A stretch of DNA of 64,000 nt from Ostreococcus lucimarinus. Taxonomy: Eukaryota. The stretch lies in assembly GCA_000092065.1 (NCBI GenBank), contig CP000587.1; one strand, written 5' to 3'. Below the pieces are notes generated by a model. The model did no database searches. It had not been told where the DNA came from and worked only from the letters and a program-made list of their open reading frames with translations. This document shows positions 8,458 to 52,647 of the stretch, piece by piece. The translations under genes and the position numbers were made by a program. Position 1 is the stretch's first letter, and each line of letters opens with the position of its first letter.

Positions 8458-11400
8458 ATGGGCGTCGATCGCGCTCGCGCTCGTAGGTTGACCGAGAGCG
8501 AGAACGATGACGACGACGACCGAAGTCTCGACGCGCGCGAGGAGGTTGGAGATGGTGACGACGAGAGTGACGAAGAAGATGTGGACGGGGATAGTGTTGT
8601 ACGCGCGTCTCTGGAACGCGCAAGCGAGCGAGATGCGGAGATTGCGGATGAGAGGGATACGCGAGTGCGAATACTTCTCATTCGCGAACGGGACGCCGAG
8701 TTCGCGCGAGATCCAAAATTTAAATCGCGATCAATCGCCGAGTTGAACAACGAAGCCGTGCGATATTTGAAAGCCGGAGACGATGTCAAGTGTGTGGTGG
8801 CTTACGCCAAGGTGTTTCGAAAGGTTTCTGAAAACAACGTCACGCACCCGACGCTATACGTGTGCCACTCAAATCGCGCATTCGCGTACTTGAACTTGGG
8901 TCTATTTCAAGAAGCTCTGTGGGATGGCCATCGCGCGCAGACATTGGCGAATGAGCGTTTCACGCAGTTACAAGATGACGACGGGAGTGTCAAGGTTTTC
9001 GTGAAGGGTTACGCGAGGAAGGGTTTCGCGCTCATGGGTTTGCGGGAACCGAAACTCGCAAAGCTCGAGTTTGAGCGCGGATTAACCATGAGCCCGACCG
9101 ATGAGGAATTGAAGCGCGGTTTGGAAGAGGCAACGCAAGCAGTCATTCGTGATTTATACATCGGACGCGGAAAAGAGAAACAATATGCCCTGCCGAGCTC
9201 CGGGAAAACGAGTGAGAGAATTTCGTCGCTGCCGTACTCGGCGCCGCTTCACCGTGTGCATCCTCGCGATATGCTGCCCAACACGCTATTGACCCCATTC
9301 CAAGCCGAAAATGATTATCATCTGAAGGACACGTACAATTATATGACGATTCAAGCCGATATTCGCGTCCCGAAGAGACATTTCAAGGTTTTACAAGACG
9401 ACGTTCGGCGCGCCAAGTTCTCTACGGCGATTAAATGCGCAATCGACAAGATGCACGACGACGCCAAAGATGCACGAGTTTTGAATATCGGTTGCGGTGC
9501 GGGATTAAATACAATGTTGGCGTTGAAACACGGTGCGCATCACGTGACGGCTACCGAGCGCTGGCTGTACCTCGCCATGGCTACGAAGGAGAATTTGTTG
9601 AACAACGGATACAGTGATGACCAAGTCAAAGTCGTGTACAAGCGTCCGACTGATCTCGCGTTGCTTCGCGATGTCCCAATATCGTGCAACGTGTGCGTGT
9701 GCGATGTATTTGACGACGGTTTGCTGAGTTCGGGGATCATTCCCGCCGTTAGGCATGCCTTGGACAAGCTATTGTTGCCAGACGCAGTCGTCATTCCGTC
9801 GAGCGCGACGCTGTACGCCCAAGCCGTCGATATGCGCACGCCCGCCTTTGACGGAATCAATCTCAGCGCGATAGACGGTTACAGATGGCACCCAACGTAC
9901 ATTGCAGGCATTGATTTATTCGAGAACGCGTACATCACTCTGAGCGATCCTGTGCAAGTGTTCCAATTTGACTTCCTCATGCCGCCAGACTGTAGCGAGA
10001 AGAAGACGATTGATTTAACGTTTACGAAGCGCGGCAAGTTCAACGCCGTGGTGTTTTGGTACGAGATGACTTTGATTGATGATGTGAAAATTTCAACAAA
10101 ACCTGGTGGTGAAGATTGTCCTTCTTCGATGCGCGCCGCTGTCCAGTTCATGCCCGGGAAAATATCAATAGAAGAAGGCAGCGTGTTGCCACTCACGTGC
10201 GCGCACAACACAGTCGGTATACAGTTTAGTGTCGAAGATGCAGAGTACGATCAAGTGACGAAAAAAGATGCCAGTTTTCCAAAATATCACTTTCACATGC
10301 TTCGCGATGAGGGGCGTCTGCACGCGTATTCGGACGCCCTCGGGCGTCAAGTTGCGCGAATCAAGGCTCGCGGAGACACGTGCAGGGCGCTCGACATCGG
10401 CACGGGAAGCGGTATACTCGCCATGCTCGCCGCGCGAGCGGGTGCGGATTCCGTCGTCGCTTGCGACACGCATCCATCGCTCGTGAGCGTCGCTAGACGA
10501 AATGTTGCCGCGAATGGTTACGGATCTCAGGTGAGCGTCCTGAAGCGCGACGCGACGCAACTCGAACGCGGCAAGCATGCGCCATACGACGGCGTTAATC
10601 TTATCGTTCTGGACGTCTTCGACGCCGGACTCACCGGAGATGACGTGTTGGACATGATAGAAGCAGCCCGTAAGCAATTGAGCGCATCTACGTGCGCAGT
10701 CGTTCCCGCGGCGGCGACGATTTATTGCGCAGGCATCGAAGCGTACACAAGCGAAGTCGACGGTTTCAACATGAGCGCCTTCAACAAGTATAGATGGGAC
10801 AGCACGTACGAGGCGACGTACATGCGAGACCAGCCTTACCGAGTGTTGACAAAACCCAAAAAAGTATTCGAATTCTTCTTTGATGACTCCCAGAAGAGCA
10901 AGGGCAGGGAAACCGTGCTAAAGATGGAGACAATCGCGCACGGCTACATGAATGCGGTGTGTTTTTGGTTTGATTTGCACATGGACGAAGAAGAGACGAT
11001 TACGACGGCACCGCTAGGGATTGGAAAGGGTGGTACAATTGAAAATCAACGCATTCTCGGCGACTTTGACGGTGCGCATGCGAAAAAGGTCATGTGCGAA
11101 TCTCTTCGCAGAGTTCGAGCGAACATGGCGTCGAATCCACGAAGCGAAGACTTTGAAAGCGACTCTGCGCGCGAGGGATCAAGCGACAGGACCGTTTTTG
11201 TCTCCGATGCCACGTCCTTAGGAGATGATGAATTCGACGACGACGATCGCGAGGAGCACTATTGGGGGCAGGCGCTGCAATACCTCGAACGCGGCGTCCA
11301 GGTGCGCGCGGGAAAGAAAATCGCGCTCTTGGCCAAGCGACAAAACGGCGGCGTGCACTTTAGTTTAAAAGAGGGCGTCGGAAATTGGGTAGGAAAACCA

Positions 11401-11700
11401 CCGTGGAAGATTGAATGGGGCGGCGGCGCGTCCGTGGAGAGCCCACATTTCCAGCGCGTGCACTATTGCCAATTGCTCGTCAACGATTTTCTGATGCGTC
11501 TACGATGCAAACGGTTCGCGCCGATCGAAAAAGACATGAAGATGATTCTCGCGCATTGCGGTGCGCTGTTTCTCGAGCCTCATAGCTTGACTGACATATA
11601 CCATCACTTAGTCATGCTAGAAGTGTACTTTGATTGGGAAGACTTCTCCCCGGGAACGAAGGTTGAATCGATGACGAAGCCGTGTTTGCGCCTGTGCTAA
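8458..11700 (+). CDS. PRMT9-like protein arginine methyltransferase: N-terminal TPR repeats followed by two tandem PRMT modules
   Basis: TPR-like segment (AYAKVFRK...HSNRAFAYLNLGLFQEAL...KGYARKGFALMGL). Module 1 has VLNIGCGAGLNTM...CVCDVFDDGLL. Module 2 has ALDIGTGSGILAM...LIVLDVFDAGLTGDD and a THW-like loop EHYWGQ. The [DE]xFDxxL loop is of the PRMT7/9 type. Confidence 0.75.
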   Translation: MGVDRARARRLTESENDDDDDRSLDAREEVGDGDDESDEEDVDGDSVVRASLERASERDAEIADERDTRVRILLIRERDAEFARDPKFKSRSIAELNNEAVRYLKAGDDVKCVVAYAKVFRKVSENNVTHPTLYVCHSNRAFAYLNLGLFQEALWDGHRAQTLANERFTQLQDDDGSVKVFVKGYARKGFALMGLREPKLAKLEFERGLTMSPTDEELKRGLEEATQAVIRDLYIGRGKEKQYALPSSGKTSERISSLPYSAPLHRVHPRDMLPNTLLTPFQAENDYHLKDTYNYMTIQADIRVPKRHFKVLQDDVRRAKFSTAIKCAIDKMHDDAKDARVLNIGCGAGLNTMLALKHGAHHVTATERWLYLAMATKENLLNNGYSDDQVKVVYKRPTDLALLRDVPISCNVCVCDVFDDGLLSSGIIPAVRHALDKLLLPDAVVIPSSATLYAQAVDMRTPAFDGINLSAIDGYRWHPTYIAGIDLFENAYITLSDPVQVFQFDFLMPPDCSEKKTIDLTFTKRGKFNAVVFWYEMTLIDDVKISTKPGGEDCPSSMRAAVQFMPGKISIEEGSVLPLTCAHNTVGIQFSVEDAEYDQVTKKDASFPKYHFHMLRDEGRLHAYSDALGRQVARIKARGDTCRALDIGTGSGILAMLAARAGADSVVACDTHPSLVSVARRNVAANGYGSQVSVLKRDATQLERGKHAPYDGVNLIVLDVFDAGLTGDDVLDMIEAARKQLSASTCAVVPAAATIYCAGIEAYTSEVDGFNMSAFNKYRWDSTYEATYMRDQPYRVLTKPKKVFEFFFDDSQKSKGRETVLKMETIAHGYMNAVCFWFDLHMDEEETITTAPLGIGKGGTIENQRILGDFDGAHAKKVMCESLRRVRANMASNPRSEDFESDSAREGSSDRTVFVSDATSLGDDEFDDDDREEHYWGQALQYLERGVQVRAGKKIALLAKRQNGGVHFSLKEGVGNWVGKPPWKIEWGGGASVESPHFQRVHYCQLLVNDFLMRLRCKRFAPIEKDMKMILAHCGALFLEPHSLTDIYHHLVMLEVYFDWEDFSPGTKVESMTKPCLRLC

Positions 11701-11814: not shown

Positions 11815-12370
11815 CTAAAACTGCAAGTTTGCGATTCTTTCCTTCTCCGCCTGTCGGCGCGCCAACTCGGCTCGTCCGGCCGCGGTCTTTTGCAGCTCGT
11901 GCACCGTCTTCTCCTTCCCACCCTTCACCGCAGCGCCTTGCGTCGTCACACCACCCGAAGCGGCGTGCGCGTCCGTCCAGTCTGCGAACACAAACGGGAG
12001 TTTGGCGTGTTTGCTATCCCAGTGCGCGACAGCCGTCTTCTCGCTCGGCGCGCCCTGCGCGCACACGGGACATTTGAACTTGGCGTGTCCCGCCGCTCCA
12101 CCGAGTCGGTCCGCCTTACCGCTCTTCCCACCGCCCTTGTTCGTGAGCGCGGCCGCAGCCTTACTCGCGAGCTCCTTCGCCGTGTGCTGCGCGATAATAT
12201 TCGCCGTCAGTCTCGTGGTCGCGTCGCGCGTCACGCGTGCGTCGCGCCCATCGCGCGTCCGTCCGCGGCGGCGGTCATCGCGCGGCGTCGTGCGGCGTCG
12301 CGCGGCGTCGCGACGCGACGAACGAACGACACGATGAACGAACCTTTTTCGGCTTCGCCTTTCCAGCCAT
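11815..12370 (-). CDS. SERF/4F5 + C2H2 (ZNF706-like) small basic protein, 2 exons: 12344..12370 (MAGKAKPKK) and 11815..12186
   Basis: Exon 2 encodes ...KGGGKSGK...AKFKCPVCAQGAPSEKTAVAHWDSKHAKLPF, matching the ZNF706 C2H2 (YTCTVC...FKQHFESKHPKTPL). No Met lies in frame upstream. ATGGCTGGAAAGGCGAAGCCGAAAAAG|GTTCGT (ORF 12275..12499(-) tail) gives a phase-0 first exon that joins to a cgcag| acceptor at 12187-12188. Confidence 0.5.
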
Positions 12371-12552
12371 CGCGCGCCGTCCGTCACCGTCGACCTTCGC
12401 GTCGTCGTGCGCGGCGCCCAGGCGCGCGCGTTCGAGACGTCGCCGCCGTGTCGGGCGGCGAGACTGCTTACTACACGGACGGCGACACGCGCGCGACACG
12501 TCGCTCGCCGTCCCACGCGCCGTTCCGTCTTTACTCGGCGCGCTCGATCACG

Positions 12553-13690
12553 ATGGCGACGACTCAAGAAGTGAAACTGTTCGGAAAGTGGACGTTCGAT
12601 GACGTTGAGGTGCGTGCGCTCCATCCCGACGCCGCGCGACGCACGCGCGGCGACACACCGGCGGCGATGCCGATGGCGATCGCGGCGTTTTAGGGTCTTC
12701 GCGAGGGCGTCGCGCGACGCGATCGCGCGCGCGCTGCGCGTCGATGAGCGCTCAAAATGAACGATGAGACTGACGAACGCGCGTGTTGGATTACAGATCA
12801 ACGACATCTCGTTGGAGGTTCGTCACCGAGACGAGCGATGCGCGCGAACGCGAGCGAGACGCGGGCGCGGAAGATGATTGGAAAACCCTGGCGCGTCCAC
12901 GGACACGTCGCGGGCGCGCCCGCGCGGCGCGGCGCGCGACGAACGCGAGACGCAGACGCGGAGTGGACGAGGGGCGATATAAAGCATCGTTTCGCTCGCT
13001 CCCGTCGGCGTGGACGCTCGCGGAACGACGACGTCGTCGGTGCCGTAGCACGGGGCTTTTGACTGGGACGTCGCGCGCCTCGAGGACGCAACGGGGGAAC
13101 TGCAGAATATGTCGTCGGGCGTGAAGCGACAACGTAGACGCGATCTCGAAACTGACCACACATCTGTTCGTCACGTCTCGCAGGATTACATTGCGGTGAA
13201 GCCGAAGTACGCGGTGTACGTGCCGCACACCGCGGGTCGATTCGCCGCCAAGCGTTTCCGCAAGGCGCAGTGCCCGATTGTTGAGCGCTTGGTGAACTCG
13301 CTCATGATGCACGGTCGTAACAACGGTAAGAAGTTGATGGCTGTTCGCATCGTGAAGCATGCGATGGAGATTATTCACTTGCTCACCGACCAAAACCCGG
13401 TGCAAGTGATCGTCGACGCCATCATTTACGCTGGTCCGCGCGAAGACGCGACGCGAATCGGTTCTGCGGGTGTGGTTCGCCGTCAAGCGGTCGATCTCTC
13501 CCCGCTCCGCCGCGTGAACCAAGCCATCTACTTGTTGACCACTGGTGCCCGCGAATCCGCCTTCCGTAACGTCAAGACGATTGCCGAGTGCTTGGCCGAC
13601 GAGTTGATCAACGCCGCCAAGCAGTCGAGCAACTCTTACGCGATCAAGAAGAAGGACGAATTGGAACGCGTCGCGAAGGCTAACCGATAA
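12553..13690 (+). CDS. RPS5: 40S ribosomal protein S5 (uS7), 3 exons: 12553..12609, 12797..12817 (21-nt microexon) and 13184..13690
   Basis: Exon 1 is [25 protein letters not shown]. The microexon is ttacag|ATCAACGACATCTCGTTGGAG|gttcgt (INDISLE). Exon 3 begins at cgcag|GATTACATT (DYIAVKPKY...). The spliced product FDDVEINDISLEDYIAVK aligns without a gap to human FDDVQINDISLQDYIAVK. The rest of exon 3 is near-identical to RPS5 through ...[18 protein letters not shown]. Confidence 0.9.
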
Positions 13691-13812
13691 GGGGTGAATC
13701 TTTCTGGCGTCGGAGACTATAGCTCATATACCGGTGTAAGAAGGAAAGGAAAATATAGCTTCAATAAACGCTTGCGTCGCGCGCGGAGTGATGCGTGTGC
13801 GAGGATTTCGAT

Positions 13813-14670
13813 TTATTTCACTTCTAACTTTTGCTGATTATGCCAAGCAACAACGTCGTCGTACTTGAGCGCACCACCGAAACAATCGAGGGCAGAACCT
13901 ACGGTGATGTCGACCATCCCTCGCCCAGCTGCTTTGACAAGTTCGAGATCGTCCAAGCTGCGTGCCCCGCCCGCGTACGTCACTGGAATAGGGCAGAATT
14001 CGCCGAGAAGTTCGACGAGTTTTAAGTCGATTCCCAGCTTCATCCCTTCCACATCCACGCCGTGAACTAAAAACTCATCGCAGCATTTCGCCAAACGCTC
14101 CATCGTCGACCCGTCCACGGCTAAATCGGTCCACTTTTGCCACCTATCCGTGACGACTTTGTACCGGCCGTCGGCGTCGTCCAAACGGCAGCTCAAATCG
14201 AGCACGAGTTTGTCCGCGCCGACCGCGCGAATCATCTCGCTCAGCGCGTCCTCGTTCAGCGCCCCGTCTCTAAATACATAGCTCGTCACGATCACGTGCG
14301 AAGCTCCCGCATCGAGCAACTCCGAGGCGTTCGTCGGGTTGACGCCTCCGCCGACTTGTAACCCGCCCGGGAACGCTCGCACCGCCTCTTTCGCCGCTCG
14401 CAACGTCGCCTCGTCTTTGCTCAGCAATATCGCGTGGCCGCCGTATATGCCGTCTCTTTTGTACATCTCAGCGAACGCCGAGCTCGGGGTTTCAGTCTCA
14501 AAATTCGTCGCCGGCGTCTCCGAACCCGCGTCCCCGGGGCGCGCATCTTTGAGCGTGCTGCCGACGATTTGTTTCACCTTGCCGTCGTGGATATCGATGC
14601 ACGGACGAAACCGAACCGCGCGCGCGTGCGGCGCGAGCGCATTCACCGCGACGACGGTCGCCGCGCGCAT
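13813..14670 (-). CDS. HIS6: ProFAR isomerase HisA (eukaryotic HIS6-type) with a short N-terminal presequence, histidine biosynthesis
   Basis: FRPCIDIHDGKVKQIVGSTL, the VLDLSCR...VTDRWQKWTD barrel and the C-terminal GxD motifs are present. ORF 13813..14820(-); likely start is MRAATVVAV at 14670. Confidence 0.8.
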   Translation of the reverse strand: MRAATVVAVNALAPHARAVRFRPCIDIHDGKVKQIVGSTLKDARPGDAGSETPATNFETETPSSAFAEMYKRDGIYGGHAILLSKDEATLRAAKEAVRAFPGGLQVGGGVNPTNASELLDAGASHVIVTSYVFRDGALNEDALSEMIRAVGADKLVLDLSCRLDDADGRYKVVTDRWQKWTDLAVDGSTMERLAKCCDEFLVHGVDVEGMKLGIDLKLVELLGEFCPIPVTYAGGARSLDDLELVKAAGRGMVDITVGSALDCFGGALKYDDVVAWHNQQKLEVK

Positions 14671-14860
14671 GTCGAGCCAACACCGAACGCCGCCGCCGCC
14701 GACGACGACTTTGCCGCCGCGCCGCGACGAACAGTGCGTCCCGAAACGAACGCTCGCGAACGACGAGGGTTTAGAATTTATTATGTGCTCGTGTGTGCAA
14801 ACACTCACAATACCTGCCACAAAAGTTCAATGCGCGTGCTCGTGGATCCGTGGATAAAAG

Positions 14861-14930
14861 ACGACGGCGACGGCGTTGGCGACGGCGACGGCGACGGCGA
14901 CGGCGTGGGCGATGGCGCCGACACACCGCG
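14861..14930. repeat. (GACGGC)n hexanucleotide microsatellite upstream of eIF2A
   Basis: Direct reading: gacggcgacggcgttggcgacggcgacggcgacggcgacggcgtgggcgatggc. Confidence 0.7.
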
Positions 14931-14974
14931 CCGACGCGCGCGACGGCGACGGCGACGCCGAGGGTGTCGGCGCC

Positions 14975-16708
14975 ATGACGCCTCTCATGACGGTCACCGA
15001 GCGCACGCCGATCGGGATGAAACACTGGAAGTTTCACGACTGCCCGAGCACCATCGGCGCGAGCTCGGACGCCGAGGCCGTGGCGGCGTACGATGCGCAC
15101 GACTTTCGTGCCGACGTCGTGGGCGGCGGTGACGACGTCGAGGCGCAGTGCGGTGATACGGCGACGTATTCGAGAGACGGGACGTTATTCGCGTGCGCGA
15201 ACGGCGATACGGTGGAAGTGTACGACGCGAGCGTCGAACCTTTCGCGCTCGCCGCGACGCTCGACGGCTTGCCGGGAGCGAGCGCGTTGAACTTTTCGCC
15301 GTCGAAGACGTATTTGGCGATTTATCAGAAGCAAACCTCCACGGGAGCGTCAAAGGATACGAAAAACATGACGATATGGAACATAACAGGTTTGACGACG
15401 AACCGCGCGCCGCCGCGCAAAGTGTACGAAGTGTTCCAAAGGCAGTTTCTCAAAGCCGAGTGGCCGTACTTTCAGTTTAGCGACGACGACTCAACCGCGG
15501 TTCGGTGCGTGAGTAATGAGATTCAAATCATTCGTCCGGCTGAGGGATTCGACAGACATGCTCGACTTCGAGTGCCTTCTGTGGCGGTGGCGAAAATATC
15601 GCACGGATCGACGCCAAGAGTGGCGTGCTTCGTACCCGAAGTCAAGGGCGCGCCTGGATCGGTTCGCATCTACGAGCTCGCTCAGCACACAGAAGAGGGG
15701 GTGGTGGAGAACCCGACGCCGGTCGCACGTAAGTCTTTCTTCCGCGTCACTGAAGTAGATTTGATGTGGGCCCCAGATGGCTCCGCGGTGTTGATTCTAG
15801 GCTCGAGCGAAGTCGACGCGACAAACAAGTCTTACTACGGCGAGAGCTGCTTGCATTACCTCAAGGCGGATGGCTCTTTTGAGGGTGCGGTGCCGCTGAA
15901 CAAGGAAGGACCCGTCCACGACGCGCAGTGGTCGCCTTGCAGCGACGAATTCGGTGTGGTTTACGGATACATGCCCGCGAAAGCGACGATTTATAAGGCG
16001 GCACAGTGTGAGCCCAAGTATGAACTCGGCGCGGGTCCGCACAACACGCTTCGATGGAACCCGTTTGGACGTTTCGTCGCTCTCGCCGGTTTCGGAAACT
16101 TGCCCGGTGACGTCAAGTTTTTTCAAAAGATGAAGGATGGTAAGTACAAACCCATCGGATCGACGCGGGCATCGTGTTCTGTGACGTTAGAATGGTCTCC
16201 GGATGGTCGAAGACTGCTCACGAGCACGATAGCTCCTCGCCTGAACGTCGACAACGGATGGAAAATTTGGAGGTACAACGGAGATTTGTTGCTCCACGAA
16301 GAGCGTGCGAAGATTTATGAGGCGACGTGGCGTCCAGTTCCCGACGGCACGTACGAAGATCGCCCGATTTCTCCCGCATCCAAGCGTGTGGAGAGCCAAG
16401 GCGGCGCGGTTTTGACGAATGCGTCGGAGGCCACAAAAGGGGCGTACCGTCCGCCGCACGCAGCGAAAACCGCGTACCGTCCGCCGCACGCCACGAGTGG
16501 AAGTGGTAACTTTAGTCTCGCCAAGGCCTCGGAAGAAGACATGAAGGCTGGAAAGTTTAAGGCGGCTGGCGCCAAGGAACCCGCCAAGGCGGACGCCGGC
16601 GTCCCGGGGGCGGGCGCGCAACTTTCAGCCGCGGCGGCTAAAAACGCAAAGAAACGAGCGGCGAAGAAACGCGCCGCGAGCGCAGCCGCGGCGTTAGAGA
16701 AACTTTAA
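14975..16708 (+). CDS. EIF2A: Translation initiation factor eIF2A (beta-propeller, Lys/Ala-rich C-terminal tail)
   Basis: YGYMPAKATIY, AGFGNLPGDVKFF, TSTIAPRLNVDNGWKIWRYNG and an AYRPPHA x2 repeat match human eIF2A blocks. The ORF starts at 14876; the homologous N-terminus begins at MTPLMTV (14975). Confidence 0.8.
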   Translation: MTPLMTVTERTPIGMKHWKFHDCPSTIGASSDAEAVAAYDAHDFRADVVGGGDDVEAQCGDTATYSRDGTLFACANGDTVEVYDASVEPFALAATLDGLPGASALNFSPSKTYLAIYQKQTSTGASKDTKNMTIWNITGLTTNRAPPRKVYEVFQRQFLKAEWPYFQFSDDDSTAVRCVSNEIQIIRPAEGFDRHARLRVPSVAVAKISHGSTPRVACFVPEVKGAPGSVRIYELAQHTEEGVVENPTPVARKSFFRVTEVDLMWAPDGSAVLILGSSEVDATNKSYYGESCLHYLKADGSFEGAVPLNKEGPVHDAQWSPCSDEFGVVYGYMPAKATIYKAAQCEPKYELGAGPHNTLRWNPFGRFVALAGFGNLPGDVKFFQKMKDGKYKPIGSTRASCSVTLEWSPDGRRLLTSTIAPRLNVDNGWKIWRYNGDLLLHEERAKIYEATWRPVPDGTYEDRPISPASKRVESQGGAVLTNASEATKGAYRPPHAAKTAYRPPHATSGSGNFSLAKASEEDMKAGKFKAAGAKEPAKADAGVPGAGAQLSAAAAKNAKKRAAKKRAASAAAALEKL

Positions 16709-20796: not shown

Positions 20797-23700
20797 ATGG
20801 TCGCGACGCCCGAGGAGACCAACGTCGGCGATCGTCTGAGCGATTTCGTCCGCGCGCTCGACGACGAGCGGCGCGCGCGCGGCGCGAGACCGGCGGTTGA
20901 GGTGCGATGCGACTTTTCCTGCGCCCTCGCGCTCGACGCGGGGAAGGCGAATCGAACGATACAGACCGTGCCGGGGACGTTCGCGAGGGCGGCGATGAAA
21001 CCGTTCGAGGCGATGAAATCGCTCGTCGCGCGCGCGGAGAACGCGGGAGATAAGAAGACGACGCTCGAGGTGCTGCGAGACGCGCGCGGGTGCTTTCGGC
21101 CGGGGACGCTGACGCTCGTGCTGGCGCCGCCGGGACACGGGAAATCGACGCTGTTGAAATCGATCGCGGGAGTGAACCCGCTGCCGATCGAGGGCGAGAT
21201 CACGTACAGCGGGCTGACGAAGAACGAGCTCGAGGCGAAAGGGGTGTCACTGCATAGGTTGTGCGAATACGTCACGCAGCTCGACGAGCACCTGCCGTAC
21301 TTGACGGTGAAGGAGACGGTGCAATTTTCTCATGAAAACGCGTGCCACGTGCCGAGTGATGCGGAAGGGAAGGCTGCTTACGACGATAAAGTGGACAAGG
21401 TGATCAATCTATTAAATTTGGACGGATGCAAGGACACGATAATTGGTAACGATCTCATCAGAGGCGTGTCTGGCGGGGAGAAGAAGCGCGTCACCATCGC
21501 CGAAGCGATGGTGAAAAATGCGCAAGTTTTGTGCATGGATGAGATCTCTACCGGTCTCGATGCGGCGGTGACGTACAACATTGTAGCTGGTTTGAAGGAA
21601 TGGGCGTCTCGAACGCAAGGTACGGGCATCATTGCTCTCCTCCAACCCACTCCCGAGGTTGTCTCGCTGTTCGACGACGTTCTCCTTCTCAAGGAAGGTG
21701 CAACGGTGTATCACGGTCCTGTGGATAACGTCGCTACCTACTTCAAAGGCTTGGGATTCGCCCCACCCGCTGTCAACTCTGGCGCCGATCTCGCCGATTG
21801 GTTGATCTCTTTGCTCGTTTCACCCACGGAAACGCTGTTGCGCGCCGGAACGCAACCGTCCGACGCGATTCCCACAAACGTTGACGCCATGGTGAAGTCG
21901 TGGCAATCCACGCAAGCGTACGAGTCGAGCATTAAATCGAAGTGTACACCAGCCGACATCGAACTGAATACGCCGTTTGCCAAGAATCAGTATTCTCTCA
22001 GTTACCCTCGCTCATTCGCCGATCACTTCAAGTCTGTGTTCAAGCGACAGGCCCAAGTGACGCTGCGGAACAAGCTCTTCTTGCAAGCGCGCATCTTCGG
22101 TGCGTGCGTAACGTCACTCATCCTAGGTTCGGTATGGTTTGACTTACCGCTCGAACGTGGGTTCGAAAAGCTTGGTATGCTGCTCTTCTGCATCTTGCAC
22201 ATCTCCTTCTCAAACTTTTCTGAACTGACGTTCAGCGTCGAGCAAAAGTACGTCGCATTCAAGCACTTGGACGCGAAACTTTTCCCCGAGCTATCTTATC
22301 TCGCGTCATGGGCCCTGGTGCATCTTCCGATTGCTATCGTGGAGACTCTCATCTTCAGCTGCGTGCTGTATCCAATGGTTGGCTTGAACTTAGCTTTCAA
22401 ACAATGGGGCTTTTTCTACTTGCAGTTGGTGCTCGCAAACGTCGCGATGGCGTCCTTCTTCCGCGTCATTGCGTTGGTATCTCCGACGATGGAAGTCGCA
22501 CAAATCTACCCGGGTCCATTCATCGCAGTTATGATCCTCTTCGCTGGTTTCTTGATCAGCCCGGAGCTTATGGGAGGTTTGGAGTTCATGTACTGGGTTT
22601 CGATTTTCGCCTACTGCTTGCGTTCGCTATGTCAGAATGAGTTCCTGTCGGGTCACTACAACGTTTTAGTTCCGAACGACCCGATCACGGCAGCAACGTT
22701 CGTGGCCAATAATCCGCAGTACAGCTCAACCTCGATGGAGAGCCTTTGTCGGCAAAATTTGATCACGCCGTGCTCAAACATGGGAGAAATCATTCTGGAC
22801 ACGATTGGCATCACCAAAGATACCTCTTACAAATGGGCCGGTCCGGCGTTTTGTCTCGGATTTTTTGCTCTCACCTTTGCCGTTGGATTGCGCACACTGC
22901 ACACAACCCGCATTCAACGTAATATCGGGTCCAGTCGCGCCGAAGATAAAGCTCAAAACGATGAAGAAGTTATTCAAATGATCGACGTCGCGGCCGCCCA
23001 AAAGGCGATGGATTTTACCGCCATGGCCATATCGTGGAAAGATCTGTGCTACACCGTTGAAGTGGCAGCGGCGACCCCCAAAAGTGGCGCCATGGATGAC
23101 AGCACAACAGACAAAAAAGAGAAAACCGTGTCAAAACAACTGTTACACAATATTTCATCCGCTGCACAACCGGGTCGCATGCTCGCTCTCATGGGGAGCT
23201 CAGGCGCGGGCAAGACAACCCTGCTCGACGTCATCGCTGGTCGCAAAAACACAGGGCTTATCTCTGGAGATATCAAGTTGAACGGACATAATGTGAAAAA
23301 AGAAACATTTGCCCGCTTGACTGCGTACTGCGAGCAAATGGATTTGCACAACGAGTTCACTACGGTGCGCGAAGCGCTTGAATTCAGCGCCAAGCTTCGC
23401 TTGCATCCGTCCATCTCCGATGAAACTCGCGTTGCGTTCGTCGATGAAGCGCTGGAGATTTTAGAGCTTAACTCCATCGCCCACAGAATGATCGGCACGT
23501 CTGGAAGTGACACCGGGTTGGCCCCAGGACAGCGCAAAGTGCTCACGGTGGCGGTTGAGCTGGTGTCAAACGCTCCCGTCTTCTTTTTGGACGAACCTAC
23601 ATCCGGACTGGACGCTCGCAGCGCGTTGATCGTCATGAAGGAAGTTAAGAAGGTGGCTGCGTTAGGGCGTACGGTTATCAGTACCATCCACCAACCCTCG

Positions 23701-31683: not shown

Positions 31684-32682
31684 TCAAAGAGTGACGTGGT
31701 TGGGGCGCTTGTACTTGATGATCGTCTTGGAGGCCTTGCTCGGGTGACGAGTCACCTTGGTCACGACCGGGAAGGACAAGTCGTCTTGAATGAACTGGCG
31801 CGTGTTCTCGCGGCGAACATCCTTGTCGGCAACCTCCGCAATCTTAATGATTTGCAAGCACGAAGCACGCACACGGTGGCGGGAAGCCATTTCCTCGTAG
31901 AGCGCATCCACCGCCGCGTTCATCGTCGTCTCGCGGTACTCCTTATACGAGTTGTGGTAACCCGTGCGGGACTGGTAACGGATCCAGATGCCGAAGTTCT
32001 TCACGGTCGTCGTGTCCGCCTCAAAGATCTATTCGTCATTGTGAACGAATCAACACTCGTCAGTCTCTCATTCCGCGTTTTTCATCGTCGCGACGCGCGT
32101 TTAACACGATTCGCGTCGCTCAAAGTCGCGTTCGCGTCCGCGTCCCGCTCTAGGGCTTTCACCCATCCACAAAGACGCACCTCGTTGCACGCGATGATTT
32201 GGCCGTTCGCCTTCTTCACCTTCTTGAGGCGAGACATGAAGTACCAGAACTTCGATCGCGCCTTGACGTCATCGAGCGCCCACAACTTCATGCGGAACAC
32301 CTCCGGCTCGGGGTGCGCATCGGTCGGCACGTGTCGGCCGACGACTTGGTATTGGTGGTACTGCGTCGAGCAATCATTCGCGCGTTTTCTCGTCAGTCGA
32401 TCGTTCGTCGAGCGCTTCGATCGCGCGCATCGCGAGCATGAAATTATCTTCCCCCGAACGCGCCGCCGCGCGCGCGACGTCCGCGCGCGCGTCCCACCGC
32501 GCGCGCGTCGTCCCATCGTCCCGTCGTCGCCCGTAGGGTTTCGCCGCGATCGCTCCGTCCGACGCTTTCGCGTCTCGCGTCGCGCGCGCCGCGCCGCGCG
32601 CGCCGCGCGTCGCGCGCGCGCGTCATCGTTTTCGCATCTCGCGCTGTCCACCGCGCGCGCCACGCACCCTAATTTTCGCCAT
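31684..32682 (-). CDS. RPL18A: 60S ribosomal protein L18a (eL20), 3 exons: 32668..32682, 32181..32360 and 31684..32028
   Basis: Exon 1 ATGGCGAAAATTAGG|GTGCGT (MAKIR). Exon 2 gacgcag|[14 protein letters not shown]...[16 protein letters not shown]. Exon 3 aatag|[26 protein letters not shown]... Arabidopsis RPL18a is [14 protein letters not shown]...[17 protein letters not shown]. Confidence 0.85.
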
Positions 32683-50786: not shown

Positions 50787-51785
50787 ATGTCGGCGCGCGC
50801 GTTCGCGTTCGCGTCGGCGTCGCGCGCGCAGCCGACGCGCGCGCTCGCGCGCCGTCGCGACGCGCGGAGACGCGCGTCGAACGCCGACGGCGCGTCGTCC
50901 TGGACCGTCGTCGTCGATCGCGCGTCGTCGCGCTTCGGCAGCGACCTGCTCGTCGAGCGCGTGTCGAGCGACTGCCCGAACGCCGCGTTCGCGGGCGCGC
51001 TGGTGCTGACGCGCGCGGACGCGCCCGACGCGGTGCTGAGCGAACGACGAGACGACGGACGCGAGTCGCGGTCGGGACGCGCGGTCGGGCGAGGCGGGGT
51101 GTTCGACGCGTTCGCGACGCTGCCGGCGACGCTCGAGGGCGAGGCGAGACGAGGGAAGAAGACGATCGGAATATTAGGCCTGGGGGCGGGCACGTGCGCG
51201 GAAATCATGGCGGGACATCACGACGACGTGGACATGATCGGGTGGGAGCTGGATCCAGCCATCGTGGAACTGGCGAGACGACACTTCGCGGTGGGGGATT
51301 TGGAACGCGAGGGGAGGTTGCGCGTCGTCACGGGGGACGCGTTCGAGGGGTGCGCGCGGAGCGAGATCGAGTTCGATGGACTCATCGTCGATTGTTTCGA
51401 TGAGAATTCAGTCGTGGTGGCGTGTTTGAAGGATAAAGCGACGTGGGAGGCGTTGGCGGCGCGACTGAAACCGGGCGGTCGCGTCGTGGCCAACGTGAGC
51501 ACGGGACGAGGGAAAGGCGCGAAGCTGGACGACGCCATCGCGTGCGCGCAGGCGCTCGCGGACGCGACGTCGGATGAAGTCACGATTTGGCGCGCGGGGG
51601 CGTGTTCGATATGGAACGAGCTCATTTTGAGCGGGCCCGAGGTGAATTGGCGTCGCGTCGCGGACGAGTACGGCGATTTCGCGAGTTTGACAAAGGATTG
51701 GTTTTACTTTAAAAAGCCAGCGGACGCGGCTTCCGGCGCGCCGTGGCTCGCGAAAACGCTCGGGGTAGACAACGATAGCGCATAG
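50787..51785 (+). CDS. Spermidine-synthase-like (PABS-fold) SAM-dependent transferase with N-terminal transit-peptide-like extension
   Basis: ILGLGAGTCAEIM...IGWELDPAIVELARRHF...LRVVTGDAFEG...FDGLIVDCFD matches the spermidine/spermine-synthase-like Rossmann layout. Confidence 0.55.
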   Translation: MSARAFAFASASRAQPTRALARRRDARRRASNADGASSWTVVVDRASSRFGSDLLVERVSSDCPNAAFAGALVLTRADAPDAVLSERRDDGRESRSGRAVGRGGVFDAFATLPATLEGEARRGKKTIGILGLGAGTCAEIMAGHHDDVDMIGWELDPAIVELARRHFAVGDLEREGRLRVVTGDAFEGCARSEIEFDGLIVDCFDENSVVVACLKDKATWEALAARLKPGGRVVANVSTGRGKGAKLDDAIACAQALADATSDEVTIWRAGACSIWNELILSGPEVNWRRVADEYGDFASLTKDWFYFKKPADAASGAPWLAKTLGVDNDSA

Positions 51786-52499: not shown

Positions 52500-52647
52500 C
52501 GGTCGCGTCGCGCGATGTCGCGTCGCCGACGTCGCGTCGCGTCCAACACCATCGCGTCGTCGATCGGCATCGGCAGAGCGCGACGACGCGATGGACTCGG
52601 ACTCGCGACGCGGCGACGCGGCGCGCGCGCGATCGACGCGCGGCGCG

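Follow-up and report, generated by a model that had tools for sequence, protein, structure and literature searches.

The window, the 64,000-nt stretch that we analyzed, is DNA of Ostreococcus lucimarinus, a very small green alga of the sea. At positions 12553-13690 it carries what is almost certainly the single cytosolic uS7 (RPS5) gene of strain CCE9901, divided into coding exons of 57, 21 and 507 nt and with the microexon constitutive (Table 1). This degree of confidence applies to our best explanation taken as a whole, that is, to the gene, the constitutive microexon, splicing by intron definition and an origin of intron 2 by gain at the base of Ostreococcus. The microexon (ttacag/ATCAACGACATCTCGTTGGAG/gttcgt) lies within the 574-nt interval that separates exon 1 from exon 3. 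The three exons join in frame to 585 nt, corresponding to 194 codons and a stop. Both introns have GT and AG ends and contain the Ostreococcus branch-site motif (G)ACTGAC(G), which reads GACTGACG at 12768-12775 in intron 1, 27 nt 5' of the 3' splice site, and ACTGAC at 13151-13156 in intron 2, about 32 nt 5' of the 3' splice site. The GC content of intron 1 (68%) and intron 2 (66%) compares with 58% in exon 3. Microexons have been defined as exons of 51 nt or less (PMC12409088), and the 21-nt segment is an internal exon within this limit, with an AG acceptor, a GT donor and a branch site upstream. The extended Ostreococcus branch-point motif GACTGACG is given in PMC3879977, which cites Irimia and Roy 2008. 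Set beside the canonical introns as that secondary account describes them, intron 1 has the exact GACTGACG motif and intron 2 has ACTGAC, 27-32 nt from the acceptor; nothing notable differs, and the RPS5 introns are typical members of the class.

Table 1 Features of the RPS5 locus and its surroundings. Positions are those of the window; identity is the mean pairwise nucleotide identity among five Ostreococcus lineages.
Feature	Position	Strand	Description	Identity
RPS5 coding exon 1	12553-12609	plus	57 nt; ATG at 12553; ends in phase 0, followed by donor GTGCGT	91%
RPS5 intron 1	12610-12796	plus	187 nt; 68% GC; GTGCGT...TTACAG	49%
RPS5 microexon	12797-12817	plus	ATCAACGACATCTCGTTGGAG; 21 nt; INDISLE, residues 20-26; phase 0 at both ends	95%
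RPS5 intron 2	12818-13183	plus	366 nt; 66% GC; GTTCGT...TCGCAG	36%
RPS5 exon 3	13184-13690	plus	507 nt including TAA (13688-13690); residues 27-194, DYIAVK...AKANR; preceded by cgcag	88%
Divergent neighbor, exon 1	12344-12370	minus	27 nt; MAGKAKPKK, followed by gttcgt	
Divergent neighbor, intron	12187-12343	minus	157 nt; contains GACTGACG	
Divergent neighbor, exon 2	11815-12186	minus	hand-spliced model	
Flanking gene	8458-11700	plus	intronless; 1080 aa; PrmA/methyltransferase matches	
Flanking gene	13813-14820	minus	His_biosynth (HisA-like)	
Flanking gene	14876-16708	plus	eIF2A	

The spliced 132-aa product of the divergent neighbor is identical to XP_001418807.1/A4RZJ4, which belongs to the same 783,246-nt record as the RPS5 entry. 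XP_001418807.1 is annotated as "predicted protein" and gave no Pfam match. The order of the flanking genes is kept in all of the metagenome copies L001-L011.

The spliced 194-aa RPS5 product is a full-length eukaryotic uS7. An exact-sequence look-up retrieved it as XP_001418582.1/ABO96875.1/A4RZJ5 of O. lucimarinus CCE9901, annotated as [quoted passage not shown]. The two proteins are identical residue for residue, INDISLE included. An earlier note on this DNA had proposed that RPS5/uS7 has three exons, the internal one a 21-nt microexon; this identity bears the model out, and its coordinates and sequences for all three exons and their splice sites are correct to the base. The note's placement of the DNA in the Mamiellales was likewise correct. 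Since the spliced product equals the RefSeq entry, the microexon is already annotated. The 21-nt exon is thus real and correct in the public reference annotation, an ordinary and already known feature, and the identical product suggests that the annotated exon coordinates are the same as ours.

We further characterized the product by comparison with known uS7 proteins. Residues 5-194 align to 8auv_d, the uS7 chain of a solved 80S ribosome (E 4.9e-107), and INDISLE is matched to INDISVE without a gap at either exon junction. Alignment to uS7 proteins had been suggested in the earlier note as a check of the spliced model, and against 80S ribosome chains it is gapless across the heptapeptide. The protein has the N-terminal extension KLFGKW..DV.[IV]NDISL.DY together with near-gapless, full-length similarity to uS7. 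Its identity of 85-89% to proteins in ribosome structures suggests that it is incorporated into the 40S subunit. The Pfam domain Ribosomal_S7 (PF00177) scores 143.4 bits over residues 37-194 (gathering cut-off 24; E 5.2e-42) and lies wholly within exon 3. The microexon is outside the domain; its seven residues (20-26) belong to the conserved N-terminal extension in front of the S7 core. Its deletion leaves the Pfam score unchanged (143.5 bits without it), and domain-based quality control is therefore blind to its absence. An AlphaFold2 model built on a 14-sequence alignment had a mean pLDDT of 43.7, with residues 1-61 below 50, and was set aside as unusable for the structure of the heptapeptide. 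The earlier description of the heptapeptide as invariant is too strong, as variants include INDMSV in Datura and INDMAL in Coccomyxa, as well as VSDISLT and VTDISLV. In a set of 14 green-lineage sequences, D22, I23, S24, L25 and E26 are invariant.

A segment of only 21 nt might in principle be a chance or relic match, a pseudo-exon in one 574-nt intron, with the real protein lacking these residues; apart from the small size of the segment, nothing speaks for this. The interval contains three stop-free cassettes of the form AG/N21/GT, which score +30 (the microexon), -8 and -7 against INDISLQ with BLOSUM62. When the interval was shuffled 20,000 times with its dinucleotides preserved, no shuffle contained such a cassette at four or more identities out of seven, compared to the observed seven of seven, a count that takes E as equivalent to Q. 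The INDISLE match is thus far beyond chance. Moreover, the segment is included in an intron-free contig, shows only synonymous changes next to flanks that have diverged to 36-49% identity, and is present in the identical RefSeq protein. Taken together, the shuffles, the contig, the conservation and the RefSeq identity refute a pseudo-exon, which we regard as so improbable as to be negligible.

The intron-free contig (L097; Logan assembly ERR9850600_404772, 900 nt) contains an uninterrupted 585-nt coding sequence. Its positions 248-315 match 12542-12609 (exon 1) at 100% identity, 314-337 match 12795-12818 (microexon) at 100%, and 335-900 match 13182-13747 (exon 3) at 99.6%. The coding sequence agrees with that of the window at 583 of 585 bases, and a 60-mer over both junctions is present. 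Reads spliced across 12609/12797 and 12817/13184 had been named in the earlier note as a check on the model; both junctions are found in L097, and the outcome favors inclusion. As the contig lacks both introns, it is likely to derive from spliced RNA, and run ERR9850600 would accordingly be RNA-derived. The two differences in the coding sequence indicate that L097 stems from another strain or from a very close relative. Over its first 247 nt, L097 has no match to the window upstream of 12542, although a protein sequence (P0004) supports a genome-colinear 5' UTR to about 12529. The contig is thus probably chimeric at its 5' end, an assembly join being the likely cause.

P0004 (source "merc", ERR1712216_663617) is 100% identical to the product over all 194 residues and spans both junctions. 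Upstream of the ATG it reads LYSARSIT, the in-frame translation of window positions 12529-12552 in the 5' UTR. We take its source to be MERC, in which eukaryotic metatranscriptomes from Tara Oceans are assembled at the protein level; this source and the absent introns suggest that P0004 too is RNA-derived. Thus, inclusion of the microexon in mature mRNA is seen in the exact junctions of L097, in P0004 and in transcriptome-derived UniRef entries.

The microexon is also conserved across the genus. Among the 11 near-identical metagenome copies (94-99.9%), no position in the microexon varies, 21 nt being too short for this to be decisive. We therefore turn to more diverged sequences: at least four further Ostreococcus lineages, at least five with that of the window, all keep the cassette ag/ATCAAYGACATCTCKTTGGAG/gt, and the changes in the microexon are synonymous only (AAC to AAT and TCG to TCT). 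The identities in Table 1 were calculated from the window and four groups of loci from a metagenome scan (L032/L033, L034/L036, L037/L039/L042 and L086/L089). They show the microexon to be more conserved than its flanking introns (95% vs 36-49%). The introns of all lineages keep GT, YAG and a CTGAC 27-40 nt before the acceptor, and intron 2 varies in length from 135 to 367 nt. In total, the cassette pattern ag/ATCAAYGACATCTCNTTGGAG/gt was found at 23 loci.

Several of these loci can be tied to known proteins. The spliced L022 model is identical to UniRef A0A7R9T0G4 (Ostreococcus sp.), and that of L037 to P0141, which occurs on JGI contigs of up to 1,791 nt. L086 translates to INDISLE and then runs into an intron. 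In L089 (2985-3140) and L086, a third RPS5 intron of the form ELERV/gtacgt...tactgac...catag/GCCAAGGCGAACAGATAA cuts off the last five codons (AKANR and the stop). With the third intron removed, the spliced L089 model equals UniRef A0A6U0CWB0 (Ostreococcus) exactly; the gene in the window is without this intron.

Inclusion of the microexon in RNA-derived sequence leaves room for a second form. If the cassette is skipped, the frame is maintained and the product has 187 aa, and the unchanged Pfam score (143.5 vs 143.4 bits) means that the domain model permits it. The cassette could then be an alternative exon, with substantial 12609 to 13184 splicing and a uS7 without INDISLE, for instance as a regulatory or specialized-ribosome isoform. 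However, the exact 187-aa form is absent among about 15 billion proteins, whilst the 194-aa form is in RefSeq and near-identical included forms are in UniRef transcriptome entries and in the "merc" source. Every aligned uS7 homolog has the heptapeptide, and purifying selection on the cassette is strong throughout the genus. Exon skipping is also uncommon in organisms with short, strongly signaled introns. We consider such an alternative exon very unlikely, and inclusion is probably constitutive. A minor skipped isoform may exist, given that skipping in frame is possible, but no observation supports it. Retention of either intron 1 or intron 2 leads to an early stop in the in-frame reading, so that unspliced forms would be non-productive. 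It is similarly improbable that the genus-specific intron 2 and the skippable exon are regulatory, with skipping to a uS7 without INDISLE or intron retention acting as an autoregulatory switch of uS7 dosage.

How an exon of 21 nt would be recognized follows from the introns on either side. Ostreococcus introns are short and have information-rich signals, so each is probably defined on its own. Under such intron definition, the two short flanking introns would be recognized individually via strong extended signals, namely a GTKCGT donor, a YAG acceptor and, 27-32 nt before the acceptor, a (G)ACTGAC(G) branch site. The 21-nt exon would then need no exon-definition machinery.

We inspected the introns for other content. 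An Rfam scan of 12200-13900 on both strands gave no match at E <= 1, and the range of intron 2 lengths among lineages also argues against a snoRNA host. With respect to introner elements, the repetitive introns resembling transposons that are known from Micromonas and other algae, BLAST of both introns within the 64-kb window returned only CG-rich low-complexity matches of 13-49 nt, and orthologous introns are unalignable between lineages. Within the window, neither intron is thus a member of a detectable repeat family. The interval 12610-13183 shares CG-rich, GCGCGACGCG-like stretches (20-49 nt, 77-95%) with, for example, 20859-20896, 32570-32608, 50808-50854 and 52614-52646. These stretches occur at many apparently non-coding places and look like a compositional signature of the non-coding DNA of this genome, not a discrete repeat family.

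The gene structure has consequences for annotation from open reading frames (ORFs). The cassette is invisible in the ORF list, as the earlier note had pointed out: it falls only within a meaningless 37-aa ORF (12764-12877), below the default cut-off of 60 aa. An ORF caller chooses 13109-13690 instead, a 193-aa frame with a spurious N-terminus (MSSGVKRQ...), which is recorded on 502 contigs. The earlier expectation that automated annotation would miss the exon therefore holds for ORF-based callers, with their truncated 193-aa frame, but not for the eukaryotic reference annotation, which has it. For the divergent neighbor, prokaryote-style callers produce a spurious 330-aa ORF (11815-12807) that crosses RPS5 exon 1 on the opposite strand, reaches into the microexon and has been repeatedly recorded. 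The locus thus illustrates cleanly what happens to picoeukaryote genes in metagenomes when gene calling relies on ORFs alone.

To establish the history of the two introns, we mapped exact proteins to genomic loci, with a minimum exon size and only GT donors in the final mapping. Intron 1 is in phase 0, between DDV[EQ] and [IV]ND, and its position and phase are shared by introns in Bathycoccus, Micromonas, Chlorella variabilis, Coccomyxa, Datura and Dichanthelium. The two-exon model of Bathycoccus prasinos equals CAL6316204.1 and that of Micromonas commoda equals XP_002501578.1; both have intron 1 only. These genes resemble that of the window in their phase-0 intron after DDVE, in 89-90% protein identity and in the same kind of splice signals. 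They differ in that INDISLE forms part of the large exon: no intron separates ISLE from DY, and a microexon is therefore lacking. The comparison with RPS5 genes of other Mamiellales called for in the earlier note thus recovers intron 1 and INDISLE in Bathycoccus and Micromonas, but not a separate microexon. Among the mapped loci, intron 2 is absent from Bathycoccus, Micromonas, a Picochlorum-like alga, Chlorella, Coccomyxa, Dunaliella, Datura and Dichanthelium, and within this green-lineage set it is found only in Ostreococcus. Dunaliella and the Picochlorum-like alga have neither intron. The spread of intron 1 indicates that it is ancient and, on the loci compared, predates the split of chlorophytes and land plants.

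Further introns are seen in the part of the gene that corresponds to window 13184-13690 when it is compared with L092-L096. Phase-2 introns after residues ~60, 108 and 176 are common to Chlorella, Coccomyxa and Dunaliella, and the last two positions are also shared with land plants. Ostreococcus, Bathycoccus and Micromonas are without all three. Mamiellales RPS5 has thus lost these three and kept only the first of the ancient introns.

Intron 2 was most likely gained once, in the Ostreococcus stem, at a GAG/GA protosplice site 21 nt downstream of intron 1. As intron 2 occurs only in Ostreococcus and intron 1 is shared, parsimony favors this single gain; the taxon sample is limited and the mapped loci are all from the green lineage. 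In relatives, the uninterrupted site reads GAG^GA or GAA^GA, the former an AG/G protosplice site. The opposite history, in which intron 2 was already present in the Mamiellales ancestor or earlier, was lost independently elsewhere and left an old microexon in Ostreococcus alone, draws some support from the confinement of the sample to the green lineage and from the phase-2 introns that other green lineages have and Mamiellales lack, since losses in this gene imply that intron loss is frequent in the lineage. However, intron 2 would then have been lost exactly and independently at least three or four times (in Bathycoccus, Micromonas, trebouxiophytes and land plants), against one gain, and the site in relatives is a good AG/G protosplice site. 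We therefore think an ancestral intron 2 unlikely. With a gain in the Ostreococcus stem, the new intron 2 beside the ancient intron 1 would have split off the heptapeptide as a separate exon. RPS5 would then be a small, well-bounded case of microexon birth through intron gain beside an ancient intron in an intron-poor genome.

As the reference annotation is already correct, knowledge of the gene itself is unchanged. What we add is an intron-free contig over both junctions, conservation of the cassette across the genus, and the probable origin of the microexon from an Ostreococcus-specific intron beside an ancient one. Our literature search found no paper that links the term "microexon" with Ostreococcus RPS5, and neither Ostreococcus nor ribosomal proteins come up in the main text of PMC8831610. 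The RPS5 exon is similar to the plant microexons described by Yu et al. 2022 (PMC8831610) and in MEPDB (PMC12409088), which are likewise very short internal coding exons that encode conserved protein segments between canonical introns, and which are just as easily missed by annotation without transcript or homology guidance. Those catalogs are mainly concerned with exons no longer than 15 nt, from land plants and Chlamydomonas, whereas the RPS5 exon is 21 nt long, specific to its genus and already annotated.
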